DNA from: a virus
Lineage: Duplodnaviria > Caudoviricetes
DNA length: 64,000 nucleotides
Strand: one strand, 5' to 3'
Virus record (IMG/VR): IMGVR_UViG_3300028410_000746
Numbering within the stretch: position 1 is the first letter of the stretch; each line of letters begins with the position of its first letter. The translations under genes and the position numbers were made by a program. Below the pieces are notes generated by a model. It was not told the DNA's origin. It saw nothing but the letters and a program-made list of their open reading frames with translations, and searched no databases. Below are positions 3,183 through 44,279 of the stretch, piece by piece.

Positions 3183-3770
3183 TCAAACGTGGGGGTCCTG
3201 CTTGATGACCGCGCCGCTGAAGCCCAGGCCCGAGTAACGGATAGCCTTGATGCTATCACCCTTGGTGGCCCATCCACGCTGGCCGTTGCCCCGCTTCTGA
3301 CGTCGGGTCCAGCACTGAGCGGGGATGTCCTCAAGAGCGACGCCCTCCTCCAGGGCCTGACGCGCCGATCGGAGGTCCGCAACCCAGATCTTCTTCTGCG
3401 AGTCTACCTTGGTGATGATCGCTCCGTAGGAGTCCCCCTGGACGTAGCGGGAAATCTCCCGACCCGCCTTCAGGATCGGGACGATCCTGATGTCCCTCAG
3501 CGCCAGGAAGTTGGAGCCGACCGCTTCTGCCAGCTCCTGGAAGCCAACGTGCTTCCAGGAGCTGCTCATCCAGTCGAAGAGGACCGAGAACTCCGCCGTT
3601 CGGTGGTCCATCCCCTCTTTCTCAGCCAGGATGCGGCCAAACTCTTCAACGGCTATCTTTTGAAGGTCTCGGCTCTCAAGTTTTACCAGGAGGCCTCTGA
3701 AGGCGAAGTTCTCCCGGTCACCGGACCGGACGTCTGCGAGGAAGCTGCGCATCTCACCGTAATTCGACAT
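3183..3770 (-). CDS. Hypothetical protein
   Basis: ORF behind promoter module 3. Confidence 0.6.
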   Translation of the reverse strand: MSNYGEMRSFLADVRSGDRENFAFRGLLVKLESRDLQKIAVEEFGRILAEKEGMDHRTAEFSVLFDWMSSSWKHVGFQELAEAVGSNFLALRDIRIVPILKAGREISRYVQGDSYGAIITKVDSQKKIWVADLRSARQALEEGVALEDIPAQCWTRRQKRGNGQRGWATKGDSIKAIRYSGLGFSGAVIKQDPHV

Positions 3771-4370: not shown

Positions 4371-4463
4371 CGTATCCTCTCTTTTCGTGTTGCCCCGTAT
4401 CGGGGCGGTGTGTCGTTCTGTCTCTCACCTCTCATGTACCACAAGGGGTGGAGAGCGTAAAAA
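4371..4463 (-). promoter_or_regulatory. Repeated promoter plus leader, module 4
   Basis: Promoter core identical to module 1. Confidence 0.7.
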
Positions 4464-9466: not shown

Positions 9467-9961
9467 CTACTCATCGTCAGTCTCCGAGGGGGCATGTTCG
9501 GCACACCGTCGACTGAACCAGCTACCCTCATAGACACCCTCGGCGCCCATCTTACCACAGACCTGACAGGTGACGTGACTCACACGCTCCGCAAGGTCCA
9601 CGTAGTGGTCTACCTTGTTAGGCCCATTCATGGTGTAGAACCGCAGCTCGCCCCACTTCTCCTTGACCTGCATGACCACGAAGCCCTCGAAGGGATCGGT
9701 GGGGTACTGCGCAAAGTAGCGCTCAATCCACTCGCAGTCTGCAAGCTCTCCCACGGTGGTGACCCCTTGTTTGACGAAGAGATCGTCGCGGATGTCACAC
9801 ACCTCCGGCCACCTCTTGGCAGCGTGCGAGATCTGATCCAGCAAGGCCTCCACGAGAGGCTCCCAGCCCTCGGGGACGCTGAAGTCAAACGCATCTTTGA
9901 GAAAGGCATGTTTTGCGAACATGCGCTCCCACCACTTCTTCTCTTCTGAACTGTCACTCAT
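9467..9961 (-). CDS. Conserved phage hypothetical protein (QVKEKWGELRFY...CQVCG family)
   Basis: Family motif as recalled; RBS GGAG; true start MSDSSE, the longer track ORF reads through CRISPR array 1. Confidence 0.65.
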   Translation of the reverse strand: MSDSSEEKKWWERMFAKHAFLKDAFDFSVPEGWEPLVEALLDQISHAAKRWPEVCDIRDDLFVKQGVTTVGELADCEWIERYFAQYPTDPFEGFVVMQVKEKWGELRFYTMNGPNKVDHYVDLAERVSHVTCQVCGKMGAEGVYEGSWFSRRCAEHAPSETDDE

Positions 9962-9978: not shown

Positions 9979-10068
9979 GGGGACATCCCCGCTCGCGCGG
10001 GGAACACCGCAGGTAGTGGGCCTCGTCGCAGATGATGACCGGAACATCCCCGCTCGCGCGGGGAACAC
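9979..10068 (-). CRISPR. Type I-E mini-array 1 (2 repeats, 1 spacer)
   Basis: 29-nt repeats GTGTTCCCCGCGCGAGCGGGGATGT(T/C)CC(G/C) at 10040-10068 and 9979-10007; 32-nt spacer; AT-richer leader to the right. Confidence 0.9.
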
Positions 10069-10345
10069 TCTTCAAATGTTCAGTATACCTAACTCCTTGA
10101 TTCATAAGAGGAATCCTGTTGGCATAGGGTGCGTCGGTTTACTTTACCAAATCGTACCCTGTGGTACAAGCTCCCAAGAGCGACTAAGCGGACCTTACTA
10201 CAAGCTCTCTCCGGCTGTCAAGAGGTTTGCAGCTCTTTCCACATGCGGTACATGTGGGCGCGGATGCGGTCATAAGAGTCCGTGTCGCCTTTTTGAGCGA
10301 TGCCGCGACCCTGGAGCGTGAGGAACACCTCTCCAAAAGCCTCAT

Positions 10346-10498
10346 GGGGACATCCCCGCGTACACGGGGAAGGGGTCCAGGTCAGGCACACGGGCCGTAC
10401 GGGAGTGGGGACATCCCCGCGTACACGGGGAAGGGTGCTACTAGACTCCGGGGTGCATGGCGGTGCGCAGGGGACATCCCCGCGTACACGGGGAAGGG
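10346..10498 (-). CRISPR. Type I-E-like array 2 (3 repeats, 2 spacers)
   Basis: Repeat CCCTTCCCCGTGTACGCGGGGATGTCCCC at 10346, 10407 and 10470; spacers 32 and 34 nt. The G-U in the stem supports minus-strand transcription. Confidence 0.92.
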
Positions 10499-10640
10499 TC
10501 TGTGCCAAGAAGTCACAGGGTAGGGAACACGTAAGTATTCGGTTTTCAAAGACTTTCAGGGTTCAGTGTCAAAGAGCGTCACCCTTGGGCGACCTCTCCG
10601 ACGTCCTTATGGTAACCACACCTAAGAGGGCCTGTCAAGC
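10499..10640 (-). promoter_or_regulatory. CRISPR leader with sigma70 promoter (leader copy 1)
   Basis: TTGACA-N18-TACCAT; highly similar to 39984-40125 and 44025-44165. Confidence 0.8.
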
Positions 10641-11982: not shown

Positions 11983-12011
11983 AGGGACATCCCCGCGCGT
12001 GCGGGGAAGGG
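11983..12011 (-). CRISPR. Solitary type I-E repeat
   Basis: CCCTTCCCCGCACGCGCGGGGATGTCCCT; no second repeat one spacer away on either side. Confidence 0.8.
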
Positions 12012-12016
12012 CCGGG

Positions 12017-12055
12017 CGCATCGACAATGCTACCACACCCTGAAAGGGGCGTCAA
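12017..12055 (-). promoter_or_regulatory. Sigma70 promoter directly upstream of the solitary repeat
   Basis: TTGACG-N17(ends TGTGG)-TAGCAT, about 16 nt before the repeat. Confidence 0.7.
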
Positions 12056-12060
12056 GTCCC

Positions 12061-13647
12061 TCACTCCACGGGTCCCAGGATCTCCTGGACGGTACCGAAG
12101 TTGGTGACGAGGAAGCGCACGGGGGCTCCTACCGTGTACCGTTGGAACTCCCCGTAGTCAACGGTGAGGGTCTGCGAGTACGGCGTATCACCCTCCTGGA
12201 ACCCCAGAGTAAGCTCATAACGCGCCGTGCGGCGTTCGCGCTCCAGCGGCCCCAGTGACCCCTTGGGCCAGCGAGCCGGTCTCTTGGTTCCTGCGGAGTT
12301 ATGACGGTCGGAGTCGATCCAGCGTTGCGTGGCGTAGCTGCACCACTGCTGCGGGATGGAGCGCTCGCAGATCTTGTCCACGGTATCGGAGCTGTGAATG
12401 GCCACCTGCTTCGAGCGCGTACACGTGTCAGGCACGCTGTCATAGACCGTACGCGAGCAGGTTGAAGAGACACTACGGGAGCAGTATCTGGGGGAGCAGG
12501 AGCGCGACGCGCTGCCCTTGCTCGTGCGGGACGTAGAGCACGTCTCGCCGCACTGATAGGACTCCGACTTGGAGCATGAATAGCTCTCCTGTCGAGACAC
12601 CTTCTTGGTGCACGAGTAGCTCTCCGTCTCCGTCCTCATGTGCGTACACGACACCTGCTTGGTCCCACACACGTAGTCCTGGTAATGGTGGTGCTTCATG
12701 CGACAGGACTGCACGCGAACTCCCGCGCGCGCGCCTGAGCCGTTGACGGGCTTGACCTCTCTCCGCTCGCTCAGACTCATCTGCCAGTCTTCGTCGACTA
12801 CAGGCGTCCACCGCTGCTCCTGGATCACCCTCTCCCAATGCAGCGACTCCACCTCTCCCGTGACCTCATGGGTCTGGAAGCCCCAAACGGTCGTACCCAG
12901 GACAAGCCCGAGGACACTGATCGCAGCCCCGCCGCCCTTCTGCTTCGGGCTCATGGATGAAAGGCGGGCCAGCTTGGGGACCTTTGGCGGGGAGTCCTCG
13001 GACGGCATACCCGACGTATCCTCGGAGGCCTTCTTGACAGGCTCTTCCTCCTCCAGGAACGCGTTCTCGGAGATCACCGAGCTGGGAAGGTCCTCGTCGC
13101 TCCATTTTGGGCGCGCGACATGACCCTGTGACTGCATCTCTTCTTTGAACGCCGAACGGCCCTTGTTGGCCGCTTCGAGCTGGTCCTCGTGCTTCGCGTC
13201 CGCGTCAAAGGAGAGGCCGTGTGCTGCACGCATACCCGCGAAGGCGCCGAACTGCTCCACGAGGTCCGCTGCGACACCCTGTTCGCCGTCCATGTAGGCC
13301 TGGAATGTACGGTAGTCGAGAGCCTCACGAAGCTGCTCATCCGAAGCACCGCGAGGCGCTGCGCAGTGGTGACACTCCGTCTCATCCCCGTAGTTGTCCC
13401 CCGTGCAGTTCGTACAGAACCAGCTCGCGCCAACGTCTGCGAACCGTGCCGTGTCTTCTTGGGTCCACGCGCGCTCTTCATGACCATGACTGGCCCACGA
13501 CTCGTCATCGCCAGGGAGATACGCCCCATCAAACTCTTCAAAGGTCCGGGCATGCGCGCACTCGGGGCATGTGCGATGGCGAGGACTACACGGGATACCC
13601 ACATGTCCGCAATCCGAACAGTCCCACATCAACCAGTAGTCACTCAT
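12061..13647 (-). CDS. Membrane-anchored protein with N-terminal Zn ribbons and a Cys-rich C-terminal domain
   Basis: WDCSDC/CPEC/WFCTNC..CHHC; one TM segment; Cys-rich tract. Confidence 0.7.
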   Translation of the reverse strand: MSDYWLMWDCSDCGHVGIPCSPRHRTCPECAHARTFEEFDGAYLPGDDESWASHGHEERAWTQEDTARFADVGASWFCTNCTGDNYGDETECHHCAAPRGASDEQLREALDYRTFQAYMDGEQGVAADLVEQFGAFAGMRAAHGLSFDADAKHEDQLEAANKGRSAFKEEMQSQGHVARPKWSDEDLPSSVISENAFLEEEEPVKKASEDTSGMPSEDSPPKVPKLARLSSMSPKQKGGGAAISVLGLVLGTTVWGFQTHEVTGEVESLHWERVIQEQRWTPVVDEDWQMSLSERREVKPVNGSGARAGVRVQSCRMKHHHYQDYVCGTKQVSCTHMRTETESYSCTKKVSRQESYSCSKSESYQCGETCSTSRTSKGSASRSCSPRYCSRSVSSTCSRTVYDSVPDTCTRSKQVAIHSSDTVDKICERSIPQQWCSYATQRWIDSDRHNSAGTKRPARWPKGSLGPLERERRTARYELTLGFQEGDTPYSQTLTVDYGEFQRYTVGAPVRFLVTNFGTVQEILGPVE

Positions 13648-16367: not shown

Positions 16368-16685
16368 ATGTACCGCCGCACTTACGCATTCGCCGCTCTC
16401 CTCCTCCTCACGCTCACAGGATCGACCGCAGCCTCCGTGATCCCTCGTACCTTCGACCCCTTCGGCTGGCTGCGTCTGCAACCCGTCCAGGTCATCGAGC
16501 TACCCGAAGAGTTCATCCCCGCGAACCTCACGCCACGCTACTCCGACGTCTACCTCGAATACTGCGCGCTGCCTGCCGACTCCGAAGCCTCTTATGTGCT
16601 CACGCACACAGGAGACCTCATCCAGGGTGATCCGGACTCGTGCCCGCATGAACTCACCCCTGAAGTCATCTTCGGACCTCAGTGA
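16368..16685 (+). CDS. Hypothetical secreted protein
   Basis: Signal-peptide-like N-terminus. Confidence 0.5.
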   Translation: MYRRTYAFAALLLLTLTGSTAASVIPRTFDPFGWLRLQPVQVIELPEEFIPANLTPRYSDVYLEYCALPADSEASYVLTHTGDLIQGDPDSCPHELTPEVIFGPQ

Positions 16686-17494
16686 CATACGACCGGATCA
16701 CTGCCTTTAGGGTTGGGGCAGAACGTCTGCGCGAGCACGGGCTCCGGAGAGTATGAATCAAACCGAACGTGAAGCATCGCGCGCTCCGCCGCCGAGCGTG
16801 ATCCGTACTCTCCAAAGGCCAGATGGAAGATCTCGCCGCGCTTGAAGACGCGTGCTCCCGAGAGCATCGTCAGGCCCTCGCGCGTGGGTGCGCGCATGAG
16901 AATGAGGATCCACCATGCCGTAGCATAGTCGTCAACGGCCCTGGATTGAGCTGCAAGCGTCTTGGGCTTCCCGGACGGAGCGGTAGCCGCGCGAGCCACT
17001 TGAACCGCTCTCGCGGAATATTCGGGGGCCTCCTCGCCTCGATCTGCTCCAGGGTCCTCAGCCCGGTCCCCGGATGGGAGAGGAGGAGCCGACATCATGG
17101 GAGCATACTCAAAGATCTCGTGATCCAGAACATCCCCGTAGCTGTCCGCCTCAAGCGCAGCCACCTCGCTTTGCTTGGCAGACTTCGCTCGTTCGATCAC
17201 CCAGGCGGCTTCGTCCGGGTAGAGGACCGTGAGCATGGTCACCGCATAGGTCACCCGCGCCGGGTCTTCATCGAGCAAGGGGGGGATGTAGGCCTTGAAG
17301 TCCGCGTTGCGGTCCGCCATGCGCGCGTTGTCGAACTCCTGTCTCTTCAGCTCGGCTTGCCGCTCCGCCTTGATCGTCTCCTGCTGCACCGCGTAAACGT
17401 GGGCCGCGTAGCTCGTGACCAAAGGTAGCAGCATGGACAGGACACCCACGAGAGCTGTCTTTGCCCGACTCCAGCCTGTTGTACTCTCCGCCAT
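16679..17494 (-). CDS. Membrane protein with a possible C-terminal SPOR-like domain
   Basis: TM helix, coiled coil, FHLAFGEYGSRSAAERAM. Confidence 0.5.
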   Translation of the reverse strand: MAESTTGWSRAKTALVGVLSMLLPLVTSYAAHVYAVQQETIKAERQAELKRQEFDNARMADRNADFKAYIPPLLDEDPARVTYAVTMLTVLYPDEAAWVIERAKSAKQSEVAALEADSYGDVLDHEIFEYAPMMSAPPLPSGDRAEDPGADRGEEAPEYSARAVQVARAATAPSGKPKTLAAQSRAVDDYATAWWILILMRAPTREGLTMLSGARVFKRGEIFHLAFGEYGSRSAAERAMLHVRFDSYSPEPVLAQTFCPNPKGSDPVVCH

Positions 17495-17542: not shown

Positions 17543-18091
17543 TCATCGCGTCCACAACCGCTCAAGCAACGCCGCCATGTCCGCATCGTTCATACTCCCC
17601 TCACCTGGACCCCTCTCACCCGGTAGAGCCCAATCTCTTGTAGGGTCACCCGGCATAGAGCCGTACATCTGGGCCAGCGCGTCCGCCACGACATTCACAG
17701 AAGACGGTGTAAGTGAAGGATCACGACTCCTGCGTTGTGCAGGGGCATCCCGTCCGGTAGAGGCATCGTCATCTTGCAGGAGCCTTCGATCCAAGGCCTG
17801 GAAATGGGAAAGCCAATGTGCTGATACGACCGCCCCAAAGAGCGCCCAATCGGCCTGCTCCAGAGCCCACCTCATCTGACCACCGGAGCGACGTAGCCCG
17901 AGGATACCGTTGGCACGCTCAAGGGTGGTGCACATTCTGAGTAAGGGGTCTCGTAGGAGAGGGTTCAACCCCCTCAATGGCTCAAGCTCAATACACTCCA
18001 GGCCCCCCATCAACGCCATCACCTGTTGGGGCAGAGACGGGTGGCGTTGTACGAAGCGCATAGCCACCAAGGCATTAGACTGTTGCAGCAT
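17543..18091 (-). CDS. Hypothetical protein
   Basis: Tiles operon. Confidence 0.5.
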   Translation of the reverse strand: MLQQSNALVAMRFVQRHPSLPQQVMALMGGLECIELEPLRGLNPLLRDPLLRMCTTLERANGILGLRRSGGQMRWALEQADWALFGAVVSAHWLSHFQALDRRLLQDDDASTGRDAPAQRRSRDPSLTPSSVNVVADALAQMYGSMPGDPTRDWALPGERGPGEGSMNDADMAALLERLWTR

Positions 18092-18093
18092 GC

Positions 18094-18987
18094 TCAGCTC
18101 TCCAAAGACTCTTTGACGAAGGAGACGACCCTATTCACACCCAAGCTATGCAGCTCCTGGACCGAGACATCCGAAGACAGCTCCTCGATCTTCGGCATAC
18201 CCGACCAGCGCTCGGACGCCGCCGCTACTGCCGCGCGTCCGCTCTCCCACCAGCGAGCCTCCGACTCAGCCTCTCCTGTGGCCACGGTGACGCGTTCGTA
18301 GTCAGCCCGGAGGCCCAGCACCAGATCATACGAAGGAGGCACGCCGTTGTCGTAGCGGGTCATGCTTGCGTGCATATCATCGGAAGCCACGCTCAGCAGA
18401 AGCGGCAAGGGAGACGGGTAGAGCAGGACGCTTGGCCCCACTCGTAGATCCGCCGTCTCCCTGGCGATACGATCTAACATGGCCTGGAGCTTCCACGTAT
18501 GGACCGCCCGGATCTGGTCATCCTCCAGGATCGTGTCCTGGTCCCACAGGTCTCTCCCTCCATAGATACCCATATCACGCTGCGACAGCACGTGCAGCGC
18601 AGACGGGACCACCAAGGGGTTACAGCCAATGGAACGCAGATGCGATGCCAAGCCCTCCGTGAACTTGGGTATCCGAGACCCCGGAGCGCCCCACAAGGCA
18701 ATGGAGACCACTGACGGCTTCGTGGCGCGCGAATGCGCCTCATATTCGACCAGATTATCTCGCAGGATCGAGAACGTCTTCGCACCCGATACCCGCTCGC
18801 CGTCTACAAAGGGGGCGAGATCCCAGTAGGGTACGAGAGAATCGCAACCGCGTACATTCGTCTCACCTCTGTGGACGACTACATACAGGGAGCCCTCCTC
18901 GTACTTGCGAACAGGGTTCAAGAGGATGAACGACCGCAACAGCCGTAAGATTAGCCCTGGAGCCGGGTTCAAGAGTCGATGTGTCAT
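18094..18987 (-). CDS. Hypothetical protein
   Basis: Tiles operon. Confidence 0.55.
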   Translation of the reverse strand: MTHRLLNPAPGLILRLLRSFILLNPVRKYEEGSLYVVVHRGETNVRGCDSLVPYWDLAPFVDGERVSGAKTFSILRDNLVEYEAHSRATKPSVVSIALWGAPGSRIPKFTEGLASHLRSIGCNPLVVPSALHVLSQRDMGIYGGRDLWDQDTILEDDQIRAVHTWKLQAMLDRIARETADLRVGPSVLLYPSPLPLLLSVASDDMHASMTRYDNGVPPSYDLVLGLRADYERVTVATGEAESEARWWESGRAAVAAASERWSGMPKIEELSSDVSVQELHSLGVNRVVSFVKESLES

Positions 18988-22899: not shown

Positions 22900-23717
22900 T
22901 GGTCTTGCTGGACCTCTCCAGGAGGTGCGAGGAACTCCCTGAGCATCCCGTCTCCCAACAACAATGGCAAGAGGGTTCCTCATCCTGGAGGGTGGTGTTT
23001 GAAGCTGGGTCAAGTTTGCGTAGCCAGGGTGCAAGCCACGTCTCTCAACGGGGCAAGTTTTGGATAACCCGAGCTACATCAGACCCAGCTTCAAGCTGGT
23101 CCGGCCGGAGCCGGTAGAAAGCTTCCCGGTCAAGGTAGCGTAGGAGGGTATCCCCCAGCCCAACCCAGACCCACTCTCGCAGGTAGGGCTCGACATGGGG
23201 GTTTCCAGTAACCCTGCCTACATCAGACCGGAAAGAGGTGTCGCAGATGCGGTGTGGTCGCGAAGGGAACGGAAGGGAAGGGACCATCCCCATGTGCGTG
23301 GGGAATCGATCGAGTTACCATCTCTCCCACCCGCTAGAAGCCCCCTCGGTGAAGCCCGAGACCTCCCTCCGGGTATGAACCGGAGGGTGTGCTGATTACA
23401 CCAGAGGCACCGTGTCACCTCAAGGGTAACTTCGGCAGGACCTCTCCACGCACTTTGCAGTGCCTACCTTTGCTGATATCCGCGACAGGTAGTAATCCAG
23501 TGCTCCGTTCTGGACTTGCACCAGACCTTCCCGCAGACCTCTCCACCAAAGAAGAGAGATGAGGGGCGTGCCTCTAAAGGTACTCGGCGCTTCATCGGAG
23601 GATCTAAAGACCCGTCCATTTCCGTCGCCTCGTACGCCAACACTTTCGGAACAGAACGTTCGATCAAGAGAGCGACGAGGAAGATTTTTGCGGTAATCCT
23701 CGTCAGCAGATCGAACG
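22900..23717 (-). ncRNA. Highly structured non-coding region in the tRNA operon (several scaffold copies)
   Basis: No credible ORF; many nested stems and repeated motifs. Confidence 0.55.
23280..23308 (-). repeat. Degenerate solitary type I-E-like repeat
   Basis: CGATTCCCCACGCACATGGGGATGGTCCC. Confidence 0.45.
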
Positions 23718-39466: not shown

Positions 39467-39983
39467 GGGGACATCCCCGCGTGTGCGGGGAGGGGTTGAC
39501 CGAGCACTGCTTCAGGTTGTCGATGTGGGGGACATCCCCGCGTACACGGGGAGGGGAAAACTTCTCCTGGGGGGTCTCTGCGGGCGCGGGGGACATCCCC
39601 GCGTGTGCGGGGAGGGGTTCCATCACTGCGCAGGAGCCGATGGCGGCGACGGGACATCCCCGCGTGTGCGGGGAGGGGTGCGCGACACAAGTCGTACATA
39701 AGCTCATTGCGGGGACATCCCCGCGTGTGCGGGGAGGGGTGACTCCGAGACCTCCGAGAGTGAGTCGCCGAGGGGACATCCCCGCGTGTGCGGGGAGGGG
39801 AAGCACGTCCGCGTCGGGCTGGTCAAAGCCAAGGGGACATCCCCGCGTGTGCGGGGAGGGGCCCGTCGTCTGGACCGCCGCTGACCTTATGGAGGGGACA
39901 TCCCCGCGTGTGCGGGGAGGGGAACTCATGGCGAGATGGTCTCCCAGGTCATACGGGGACATCCCCGCGTGTGCGGGGAGGGG
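39467..39983 (-). CRISPR. Type I-E-like array 3 (9 repeats, 8 spacers)
   Basis: 29-nt repeat CCCCTCCCCGCACACGCGGGGATGTCCCC every 61 nt (39467, 39528, 39589, 39650, 39711, 39772, 39833, 39894, 39955); all spacers 32 nt. Confidence 0.97.
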
Positions 39984-40125
39984 TCTGTGCCAAGAAGTCA
40001 CATGCGTTAGATCGCGTAAGTATTCGGTTTTCAAAGACTTTCAGGGTTCAGTGTCAAAGAGCGTCACTCTTGGGCGACCCTCTTGACGTCCTTACGGTAA
40101 CCTTGGTGAGGGAGACATGTCAAGC
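39984..40125 (-). promoter_or_regulatory. CRISPR leader with promoter (leader copy 2)
   Basis: TTGACA-N18-TACCGT; homologous to 10499-10640. Confidence 0.8.
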
Positions 40126-43170: not shown

Positions 43171-43422
43171 TCACTCTTCTTCCGAGGAGTCGTGTTCGGG
43201 ACGGGCGGCGGAAAACGCGTTCAGGAAACGCTCCCGTCGCGCCGCACCCTCGGAGGGCTTCCCGAGCTGAGCTTGGAGGTACGGGATAATAGCCGAAGAG
43301 GCGGCGGGACGGCCTGACCCCCTTGAGAGTGCCTCCAGGATTTGATTGCTGCGCGAGGTACGCCCCACGGAGCCGTTATCTTCATTCGACACGGGGACCT
43401 CCACGTTCATCCAAGGCATCAC
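43171..43422 (-). CDS. Hypothetical protein
   Basis: Tiles operon. Confidence 0.4.
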   Translation of the reverse strand: MMPWMNVEVPVSNEDNGSVGRTSRSNQILEALSRGSGRPAASSAIIPYLQAQLGKPSEGAARRERFLNAFSAARPEHDSSEEE

Positions 43423-43930
43423 GGCCCTTCTGAGTAAGGGTCATCGTCGGGCCGCTCAACTTCACCTGCTCCCAGGTCGCCAACTCGCCTATGGCATAGC
43501 TCAAGGGCTTGAGATCCGGGGCGGCCACGCGAGCCTGAGCCGAATCCATCACAAGCACGTGCCAACGCTCCCCCGTCTTGTCTACGAGACGACACAAGCT
43601 CTTCGCATCCAGGGCTCCGTGTATCCACAGGAGCGACAAGATCGTGAGATGCACATCTTCCAGGGGATAGGTCACCACACTCAGATCACCCTCTCCCGCA
43701 GGGTCACTTGGATCACGAGGGGGAGGCGGCTCAAACTCCGTGAGAGCGCCCTCCTGGGATGTAAGACCCCATTTACGACGCAACGACACCCGCGTGTCCC
43801 GTATCAGGCGGCCTATTCGCACCGTCTTGACGTACTTCCAGCAGGTGATGCTCCAGATGAGCACAAGCAACACGAACACGCTCACGAGAGCATACGATAC
43901 CCACAGAGCGGACGATTCCCACCCCATCAC
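43382..43930 (-). CDS. Membrane protein with a possible C-terminal winged helix
   Basis: N-terminal TM helix; RBS GGAGG. Confidence 0.55.
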   Translation of the reverse strand: MMGWESSALWVSYALVSVFVLLVLIWSITCWKYVKTVRIGRLIRDTRVSLRRKWGLTSQEGALTEFEPPPPRDPSDPAGEGDLSVVTYPLEDVHLTILSLLWIHGALDAKSLCRLVDKTGERWHVLVMDSAQARVAAPDLKPLSYAIGELATWEQVKLSGPTMTLTQKGRDALDERGGPRVE

Positions 43931-43995: not shown

Positions 43996-44024
43996 CGGAA
44001 CATCCCCGCGTGTGCGGGGAAGGG
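43996..44024 (-). CRISPR. Solitary type I-E repeat with a full leader
   Basis: CCCTTCCCCGCACACGCGGGGATGTTCCG; no neighbouring repeat. Confidence 0.85.
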
Positions 44025-44165
44025 TCTGTGCCAAGAAGTCACATGAGCGGAATCACGTAAGTACTCAGTTTTCAAAGACTTCTCAGGTTCAGCGCCGTTC
44101 GGTGTCACCCTTGGGCGACCCTCTTGACGTCCGTATGGTAACCCTGAGGAGGGAAACCTGTCAAC
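44025..44165 (-). promoter_or_regulatory. CRISPR leader with promoter (leader copy 3)
   Basis: TTGACA-N18-TACCAT; homologous to the other two leaders. Confidence 0.8.
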
Positions 44166-44279
44166 ATGAGCAAGCTTCGCTTCCGCCAATTGCTTCAAAT
44201 GCGCATCCCTCAACCCGAACCTCCTGTCACAGTGTGAGTCCGAAGAGAGAGGATACCTCGAAGTCACACACCTGTCAAG

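Follow-up and report, generated by a model that had tools for sequence, protein, structure and literature searches.

The phage to which this stretch of DNA belongs is not Cas-less: it carries its own type I-E machinery about 65 kb away from the arrays described here, and only the genes for adding spacers were not found, so that only spacer acquisition could still depend on the host. The leader that heads array 2 of the stretch, together with the first repeat, is probably (at a probability of roughly 0.7) a cassette that acts as an early promoter unit, whose RNA would be cut by the phage Cas6e for the phage Cascade and whose transcription would read through into the downstream genes. What is new here, at the level of sequence, is a pair of motifs specific to first repeats in this phage and in a relative, J1 and CTGRACATTTGAAGAG (the general form of J2), and the presence of the heptamer TGAAAAC within an invariant block of the leader.

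The window, by which we mean the whole stretch of 64,000 nucleotides that was analyzed, comes from a 373-kb lake-water phage with a G+C content of ~60%. An exact-protein match placed it on the contig ena:ERZ27315555:k141_181878 (373,477 bp), a circular assembly with a 118-nt end overlap that is rotated relative to the window, its start corresponding to window position 3282 and its ends lying at window 3282-3399. The two sequences differ by one mismatch in ~30 kb of overlap (C versus A at window 2935). For copy counts, 142 kb of the contig was assembled, from window-relative position -70,416 to +72,079. The window contains 15 tRNA genes, including two with CUA anticodons, and encodes a Lon protease that bears an intein; most of its proteins belong to no known family.

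The repeats are 29 nt long and type I-E-like, and those of the window lie on the minus strand. They run from CCCTTCCCCG to GCGGGGATGTCCCC and follow the form TTCCCCG-N5-CGGGGATG, a pattern with 0 matches in shuffled sequence. As in I-E arrays, they contain a CCCCGC..GCGGGG hairpin and an ATG-type 3' handle and recur with a period of 61. The coordinates of the arrays, solitary repeats, and leader elements are collected in Table 1. Spacer length is 32 nt for 24 of the 27 spacers on the contig; the leader-proximal spacer of array 2 has 34 nt (10436-10469) and its other spacer 32 nt, and two 31-nt spacers are found in other arrays of the contig. All 27 spacers are unique, as are all 66 across this phage and its relative, with none common to two arrays. 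Searched against all loci in the analysis, each spacer matched only its own position, and the array 1 spacer was absent from the viral contigs searched. One repeat variant is altered on both sides of the stem (CCCCAC..GTGGGG) so that the hairpin is kept, a compensated change that fits selection for Cas6e processing or hairpin recognition. Among the nine repeats of array 3, one with a GTGTAC loop stands among eight with a GCACAC loop. A degenerate lone repeat-like sequence, TTCCCCACGCACATGGGGATGG, is present on the minus strand at window 23283-23311, without the shared leader.

Table 1. Positions of the repeat units, leader copies, and leader elements of the phage. Coordinates are those of the window; numbers in parentheses with a minus sign count back from the first repeat, and positions in kb are relative to the window.
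Feature	Position	Strand	Description
Array 1	9979..10084 including junction J2	-	two GTGTTCCCC-type repeats (repeats 9979-10068), one spacer
J2 of array 1, CTGAACATTTGAAGAG	10068-10083	-	final G is the first base of the repeat
Array 2	10346..10498	-	three identical 29-nt I-E repeats (10346-10374, 10407-10435, 10470-10498), two spacers
Array 2 leader copy	10499..10640	-	
J1, TGTGACTTCTTGGCACAGA	10499..10517 (-19..-1)	-	invariant in 6/6 leader copies
Hypervariable block, 12 nt	10518..10529 (-31..-20)	-	three alleles among six copies
Near-invariant block, AAGTCTTTGAAAAC.GA.TACTTACG	10530..10555 (-57..-32)	-	contains TGAAAAC; can fold as an 8-bp hairpin
Promoter-like site, array 2 leader, TTGACA-18-TACCAT	10609..10638	-	consensus match 10/12
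Second solitary repeat	11983..12055 (repeat 11983-12011)	-	own promoter TTGACG-17-TAGCAT; without J1 or J2
Array 3	39467..39983	-	nine repeats, eight 32-nt spacers
Array 3 leader copy	39984..40125	-	J1 39984-40002; near-invariant block 40015-40040; TTGACA-18-TACCGT 40123-40094
Solitary repeat	43996..44024	-	zero spacers
Solitary-repeat leader copy	44025..44166	-	J1 44025-44043; near-invariant block 44056-44081; TTGACA-18-TACCAT 44164-44135
Leader copy 4	-8.6 kb		heads a seven-repeat array
Leader copy 5	-64.4 kb		heads a five-repeat array upstream of the cas operon
Leader copy 6 (partial)	-62.3 kb	opposite strand	only the repeat-proximal 90 nt shared

An earlier note, made from the letters of the window, had proposed that one leader of ~140 nt was copied to array 2, array 3, and the solitary repeat at 43996, with 2, 8, and 0 complete spacers, respectively. 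Both the leader, which measures ~141 nt and is 73-82% identical between these three units, and the spacer counts were borne out. The figure of three loci was an undercount of a duplication that is itself real: the same leader heads six units, three in the window and three outside it, so that the genome holds at least six copies, as counted in 142 kb of the 373,477-bp contig. The five full-length copies are 73-84% identical over 141 columns, of which 88 are invariant. These are grouped far beyond chance expectation, in runs that include one of 19 and one of 14 (permutation p = 1e-5). Alleles of the 12-nt hypervariable block reassort with those of a block farther upstream, and the copies are thus mosaics. 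The leader is AT-enriched, with a G+C content of 49-52% (51% for the array 2 leader) against 60% for the window. It lies directly upstream of the first repeat and contains a promoter predicted by consensus match, as well as conserved motifs by the junction, as a CRISPR leader does. The noted promoter, TTGACA-N18-TACCRT, was recovered as TACCAT twice (array 2 and 43996) and as TACCGT in array 3, and a promoter scan found TTGACA-18-TACCAT in the window at 10638-10609 and 44164-44135, each matching the consensus at 10/12 positions. Two further elements of the note, the AAGTCTTTGAAAAC block and the inverted repeat TGTGAC-N5-GGCACA by the repeat, are invariant in every copy; the arms of the latter, however, pair at only 5/6 positions, and the likeness of the former to an IHF site is weak. 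Compared with the IHF consensus WATCAANNNNTTR, the shared leader agrees at only 7/9 specified positions (TTTCAAAGACTTY), and we do not regard it as an IHF site. The leader of array 1, which carries J2 (window 10069-10110), has AATCAAGGAGTTA at a distance of 21 nt from the repeat, and this agrees with WATCAANNNNTTR at every position. To our knowledge, E. coli-type IHF is lacking in Actinomycetota.

Searches for the leader elsewhere gave little. The pattern of leader block plus repeat had 0 matches in viral contigs and in genome contigs, and in metagenome contigs it matched one chance terminator hairpin and one true cas2-leader-array (L018). There was no match of the leader to cultured phages, nor any match to the relative G001 beyond the repeat. 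The only other contig with array 2 (JGI 3300012271) is 100% identical there and breaks inside the leader, as expected because the leader is a repeated element. In the leader of the inverted array (-62.3 to -62.5 kb; L040:12127-12316), three tandem copies of GGTGGAGAGC replace the segment of the shared leader just downstream of the second hexamer of the promoter.

The relative, G001, is IMGVR_UViG_3300021978_000001, a complete genome of 437,490 bp with direct terminal repeats; its link to the phage is a 2OG-oxygenase gene adjoining array 2, whose homolog in G001 is 70% identical. It contains 47 repeats in ~15 dispersed arrays, on one strand throughout. J1, in the general form GTGAC-N5-GKCWCAG, adjoins first repeats only, never internal repeats. 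On the phage's own contig, all six occurrences of J1 are at junctions and the single occurrence of J2 is before array 1; in G001, all five occurrences of J1 and all five of J2 are directly before first repeats, and the reversed-pattern controls for both gave 0. Some of the J1 arrays of G001 are set between cas genes, where they follow immediately on the preceding stop codon and have no promoter; J1 is therefore not a promoter element. An IMG/VR scan for J1 plus repeat found no phage besides G001, the other matches being due to chance in coding DNA. No host, and no host leader with J1 or J2, was found among genome contigs or in a repeat-core scan of genomes, and we know of no counterpart of J1.

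The absence of cas genes from the window, also claimed in the earlier note, was confirmed by tblastn with Cas3, Cas7, and Cas6e of the phage, Cas5 and Cse1-Cse2 of the relative, and Streptomyces Cas1 and Cas2, none of which matched at 1-64000. The note had gone on to suppose that the module relies on host Cas1/2, Cas6, and Cascade. Following the contig upstream refuted this dependence for Cas6 and Cascade, on the terms that the note itself had set (cas genes elsewhere in the genome): genes for Cas3 (876 aa; Cas3_HD and Cas3-like_C_2, PF18019 and PF22590), Cas7 (448 aa; Cas_CT1975, PF09344), and Cas6e (243 aa; CRISPR_assoc, PF08798) were found within contig positions 299,662-319,928, at ~-65.4 to -70.3 kb. 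They belong to a gene run, Zn-ribbon, 88-aa protein, cas3, cas7, cas6e, that begins 53 nt after the end of the -64.4 kb array (110 nt from its last intact repeat). The full interference set is present in G001, in the operon cas3-cas7-cas6e-cas5-cse1/cse2, with Cse1 and Cse2 fused; Cas5 and Cas8e/Cas11 are known from G001, the phage's own contig having been read down to position 299,662. The part of the supposition that stands concerns adaptation. G001 gave no match to Cas1 (PF01867) or type I-E Cas2 (PF09707), and neither Cas1 nor Cas2 was detected in 142 kb of the phage's contig by tblastn or among the Pfam labels of the called genes; a host-supplied integrase is therefore the simplest route to new spacers.

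The order cas3-cas7-cas6e is common to both phages, with identities of 49%, 34%, and 39%, and a search with G001 Cas7 missed the Cas7 of this phage (34% identity). These values compare with 70% for the neighboring housekeeping-type 2OG oxygenase, and the cas genes appear either to evolve fast or to have been replaced between the two phages. That J1 was kept while Cas7 and Cas6e diverged to about one-third identity is the strongest sign that the junction is functional. The arrays amid the cas genes of G001 (16685-17018 and 17788-18125) give the order cas7, array, cas6e, array, cas5, and each starts with J1 right after the upstream stop codon; a 111-aa ORF in this region is a translated array only.

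We propose that the cassette, of which the genome holds at least six copies, consists of a sigma-70-type promoter, a transcribed leader of ~110 nt, and the first repeat. Each copy would be an independent early transcription unit whose promoter a host-type sigma factor would recognize. The phage Cas6e would cut the cassette RNA at the repeats, and the guides would be loaded onto the phage Cascade and serve Cas3. Transcription would run on into the downstream genes, whose messenger would be left attached or released, and a one-repeat, spacer-less cassette would thereby be a promoter with a processing site as well as an empty array. The model of transcription and processing is drawn from the anatomy of the cassette and from what is known of the type I-E family, with transcription starts ~7 nt past TACCAT and Cas6e cleavage being predicted. 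Every copy of the cassette points in the same direction as its downstream genes, and one precedes the cas operon, for which reason we read the cassettes as promoter units. Downstream of the solitary repeat at 43996, gene 43382-43930 starts after 66 nt on the same strand. Array 1 has its own promoter at ~10222, and its last repeat is followed after 18 nt by the start codon of gene 9467-9960.

Within this explanation, the junction motif and the TGAAAAC block might in addition be docking signals at which the I-E Cas1-Cas2 of an actinobacterial host could act on any copy; this is a tentative proposition, with the odds against it. To a similarly limited degree, the constant blocks may act at the RNA or operator level. 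The exact repeat core was found by a genome scan mostly in Actinomycetota (Streptomyces, Nocardiopsis, Streptosporangium, and others), and in actinobacterial I-E leaders TGAAAAC is fixed at -43..-37 (-42 at one site) at ten sites in four genomes. The TGAAAAC searches, one of which covered a 401-genome sample of the phylum, had reversed-pattern controls of 0. Saccharomonospora phage PIS 136 (JX006077.1) has the heptamer in its leader as well, in the form TGAAAAACCGGTTACTT compared with TGAAAACCGAATACTT in this phage, and the repeats of PIS 136 and of actinobacteria are alike to those of this phage. In L018, the metagenomic array next to cas2, GTCTTTGAAAAC is present and ends at -31. The phage heptamer, however, is at -50..-44, 7 nt farther from the repeat than in the actinobacterial leaders, and the actinobacterial junction-proximal consensus (CAGGTC-N4-AGT) is absent from the phage leader, where J1 takes its place. 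This offset, the absent host junction consensus, the interleaving of repeat variants, the lack of any host found with J1 or J2, and the lack of leader-end polymorphism in the one other contig with array 2 all count against the explanation that we prefer.

A more far-reaching version of docking, which we consider rather unlikely, is that the 19-nt J1 and TGAAAAC form a portable landing pad that recruits the I-E integrase of the host, so that new spacers would enter any copy during infection, including single-repeat seeds and intra-operon arrays, and would be used by the phage's own interference complex. If so, the J1 and J2 types would reflect the specificities of host integrases rather than the Cas proteins of the phage. 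Conversely, the module might be a promoter and 5'-UTR and nothing else, its invariant blocks being RNA hairpins or operator sites and its spacers changing by recombination with phage arrays or host arrays of similar repeat, never by integration; this too is unlikely, if less so. Mosaic leaders and interleaved repeat variants do speak for recombination, and the one-repeat site at 11983, a five-repeat array in G001, is what recombination between repeats would yield. Cas1 and Cas2 were found neither in G001 nor in 142 kb of the contig, and the long leaders of G001 have another palindrome, GGATTC-N6-GAATCC, in a comparable position. In RNA consensus folding, the two invariant blocks, each an imperfect palindrome, form hairpins in all copies. 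The folding gave no informative covariation, however, because the hairpin pairs never vary, and the hairpins are to that extent unsupported. It also sits poorly with such a module that J1 is retained beside first repeats only, in phages whose Cas sets differ greatly and also in arrays within operons, that 66 of 66 spacers are unique and none is common to two arrays, and that TGAAAAC is also present in bona fide leaders.

Two further readings give the host a different part. That the arrays are those of a Cas-less phage, for which the host supplies Cas6, Cascade, and Cas3 as well as Cas1-Cas2, accords with a 64-kb window without cas genes and with repeats of the Actinomycetota kind, but it is barely credible now that Cas3, Cas7, and Cas6e are located on the same contig ~65-70 kb upstream and that G001 carries a full interference set, which refute its interference and processing part. 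It is also very improbable that the short and spacer-less units are decoys whose repeat RNAs soak up host I-E Cas6e or Cascade in the manner of RNA anti-CRISPRs. Strong predicted promoters do precede the lone repeats at 43996 and 11983, and the repeats resemble actinobacterial I-E repeats; yet the cognate Cas6e and Cascade of the phage would be titrated too, the same leader heads arrays that hold spacers, and G001 has a real array at the site that corresponds to the lone repeat at 11983.

J1 provides a concrete sequence element for the question of how phage arrays without Cas1-Cas2 gain spacers. It is short, occurs at first repeats only, is conserved where nearly everything else including the Cas proteins has diverged, and is linked to a host-type heptamer. 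If host integrases act on it, a virus would here clearly be borrowing the adaptation step and nothing else; otherwise, the cassette would still illustrate neatly how CRISPR arrays can serve phage operons as modular 5' units.

Phage CRISPR systems without Cas1-Cas2 are already known, and we regard the present system as a variant of the huge-phage CRISPR-Cas kind. The huge-phage systems have their own interference genes, no Cas1/Cas2/Cas4, and compact arrays whose median repeat number is six (Al-Shayeb et al. 2020, PMC7162821). Our phage is like them in its own interference genes, short arrays, huge genome, many tRNA genes, and lack of detected Cas1/Cas2/Cas4. It differs in being of type I-E, a subtype unmentioned in the main text of that paper (PMC7162821), in its many dispersed arrays, each headed by a copy of the cassette or a short junction motif, and in having some cassette copies that are spacer-less. 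The lone repeats and the one- and two-spacer arrays with their own promoters are also reminiscent of viral repeat units and mini-arrays. Those units have been described for viruses without cognate cas genes, whereas the cognate cas genes are present in this phage, which sets it apart from Cas-less mini-arrays. Solitary viral repeat units, mini-arrays, and RNA anti-CRISPRs are reportedly covered in the work of Faure et al. 2019, Medvedeva et al. 2019, and Camara-Wilpert et al. 2023.

The E. coli I-E leader ends in AGA, as does the phage leader. The two are further alike in AT enrichment, a promoter, 29-nt repeats, and 32-nt spacers, and unlike in that the phage leader has no adjacent cas1-cas2. 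In E. coli, the I-E leader contains an IHF site and an upstream integrase anchoring site at -46..-57 (Yoganand et al. 2017, PMC5224486), and the phage block at -57..-32 overlaps the position of that anchoring site, a likeness of position only.

Arrays are gained and lost at fixed sites. Gene 12061-13647 has the lone repeat at 11983 directly downstream of it, and the G001 ortholog of this gene (48% identical) has a five-repeat J1 array at the same place. Below its oxygenase gene, G001 has nothing that corresponds to arrays 1 and 2, and array 3 has no counterpart in a 16-kb relative that carries the neighboring gene. Repeat variants are interleaved within arrays, which is impossible by copying of the first repeat at integration and therefore points to exchange; from the order of the variants, recombination between arrays has certainly occurred.

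The array of PIS 136 (JX006077.1 at ~15.7-15.95 kb; L046:1400-1720) consists of four type I-E repeats, ATCCGCCCCGCRCACGCGGGGATGAACC, and three 32-nt spacers behind an actinobacterial-type leader. The array is not annotated as CRISPR in the record, where the CDS PIS_013 (hypothetical protein) begins within the last repeat. In the window itself, an 18-nt string, TTTTACGCTCTCCACCCC, occurs twice on the minus strand (2534-2551 and 4445-4462), in both cases intergenic and after T-runs, and could represent a recurring terminator or promoter element.
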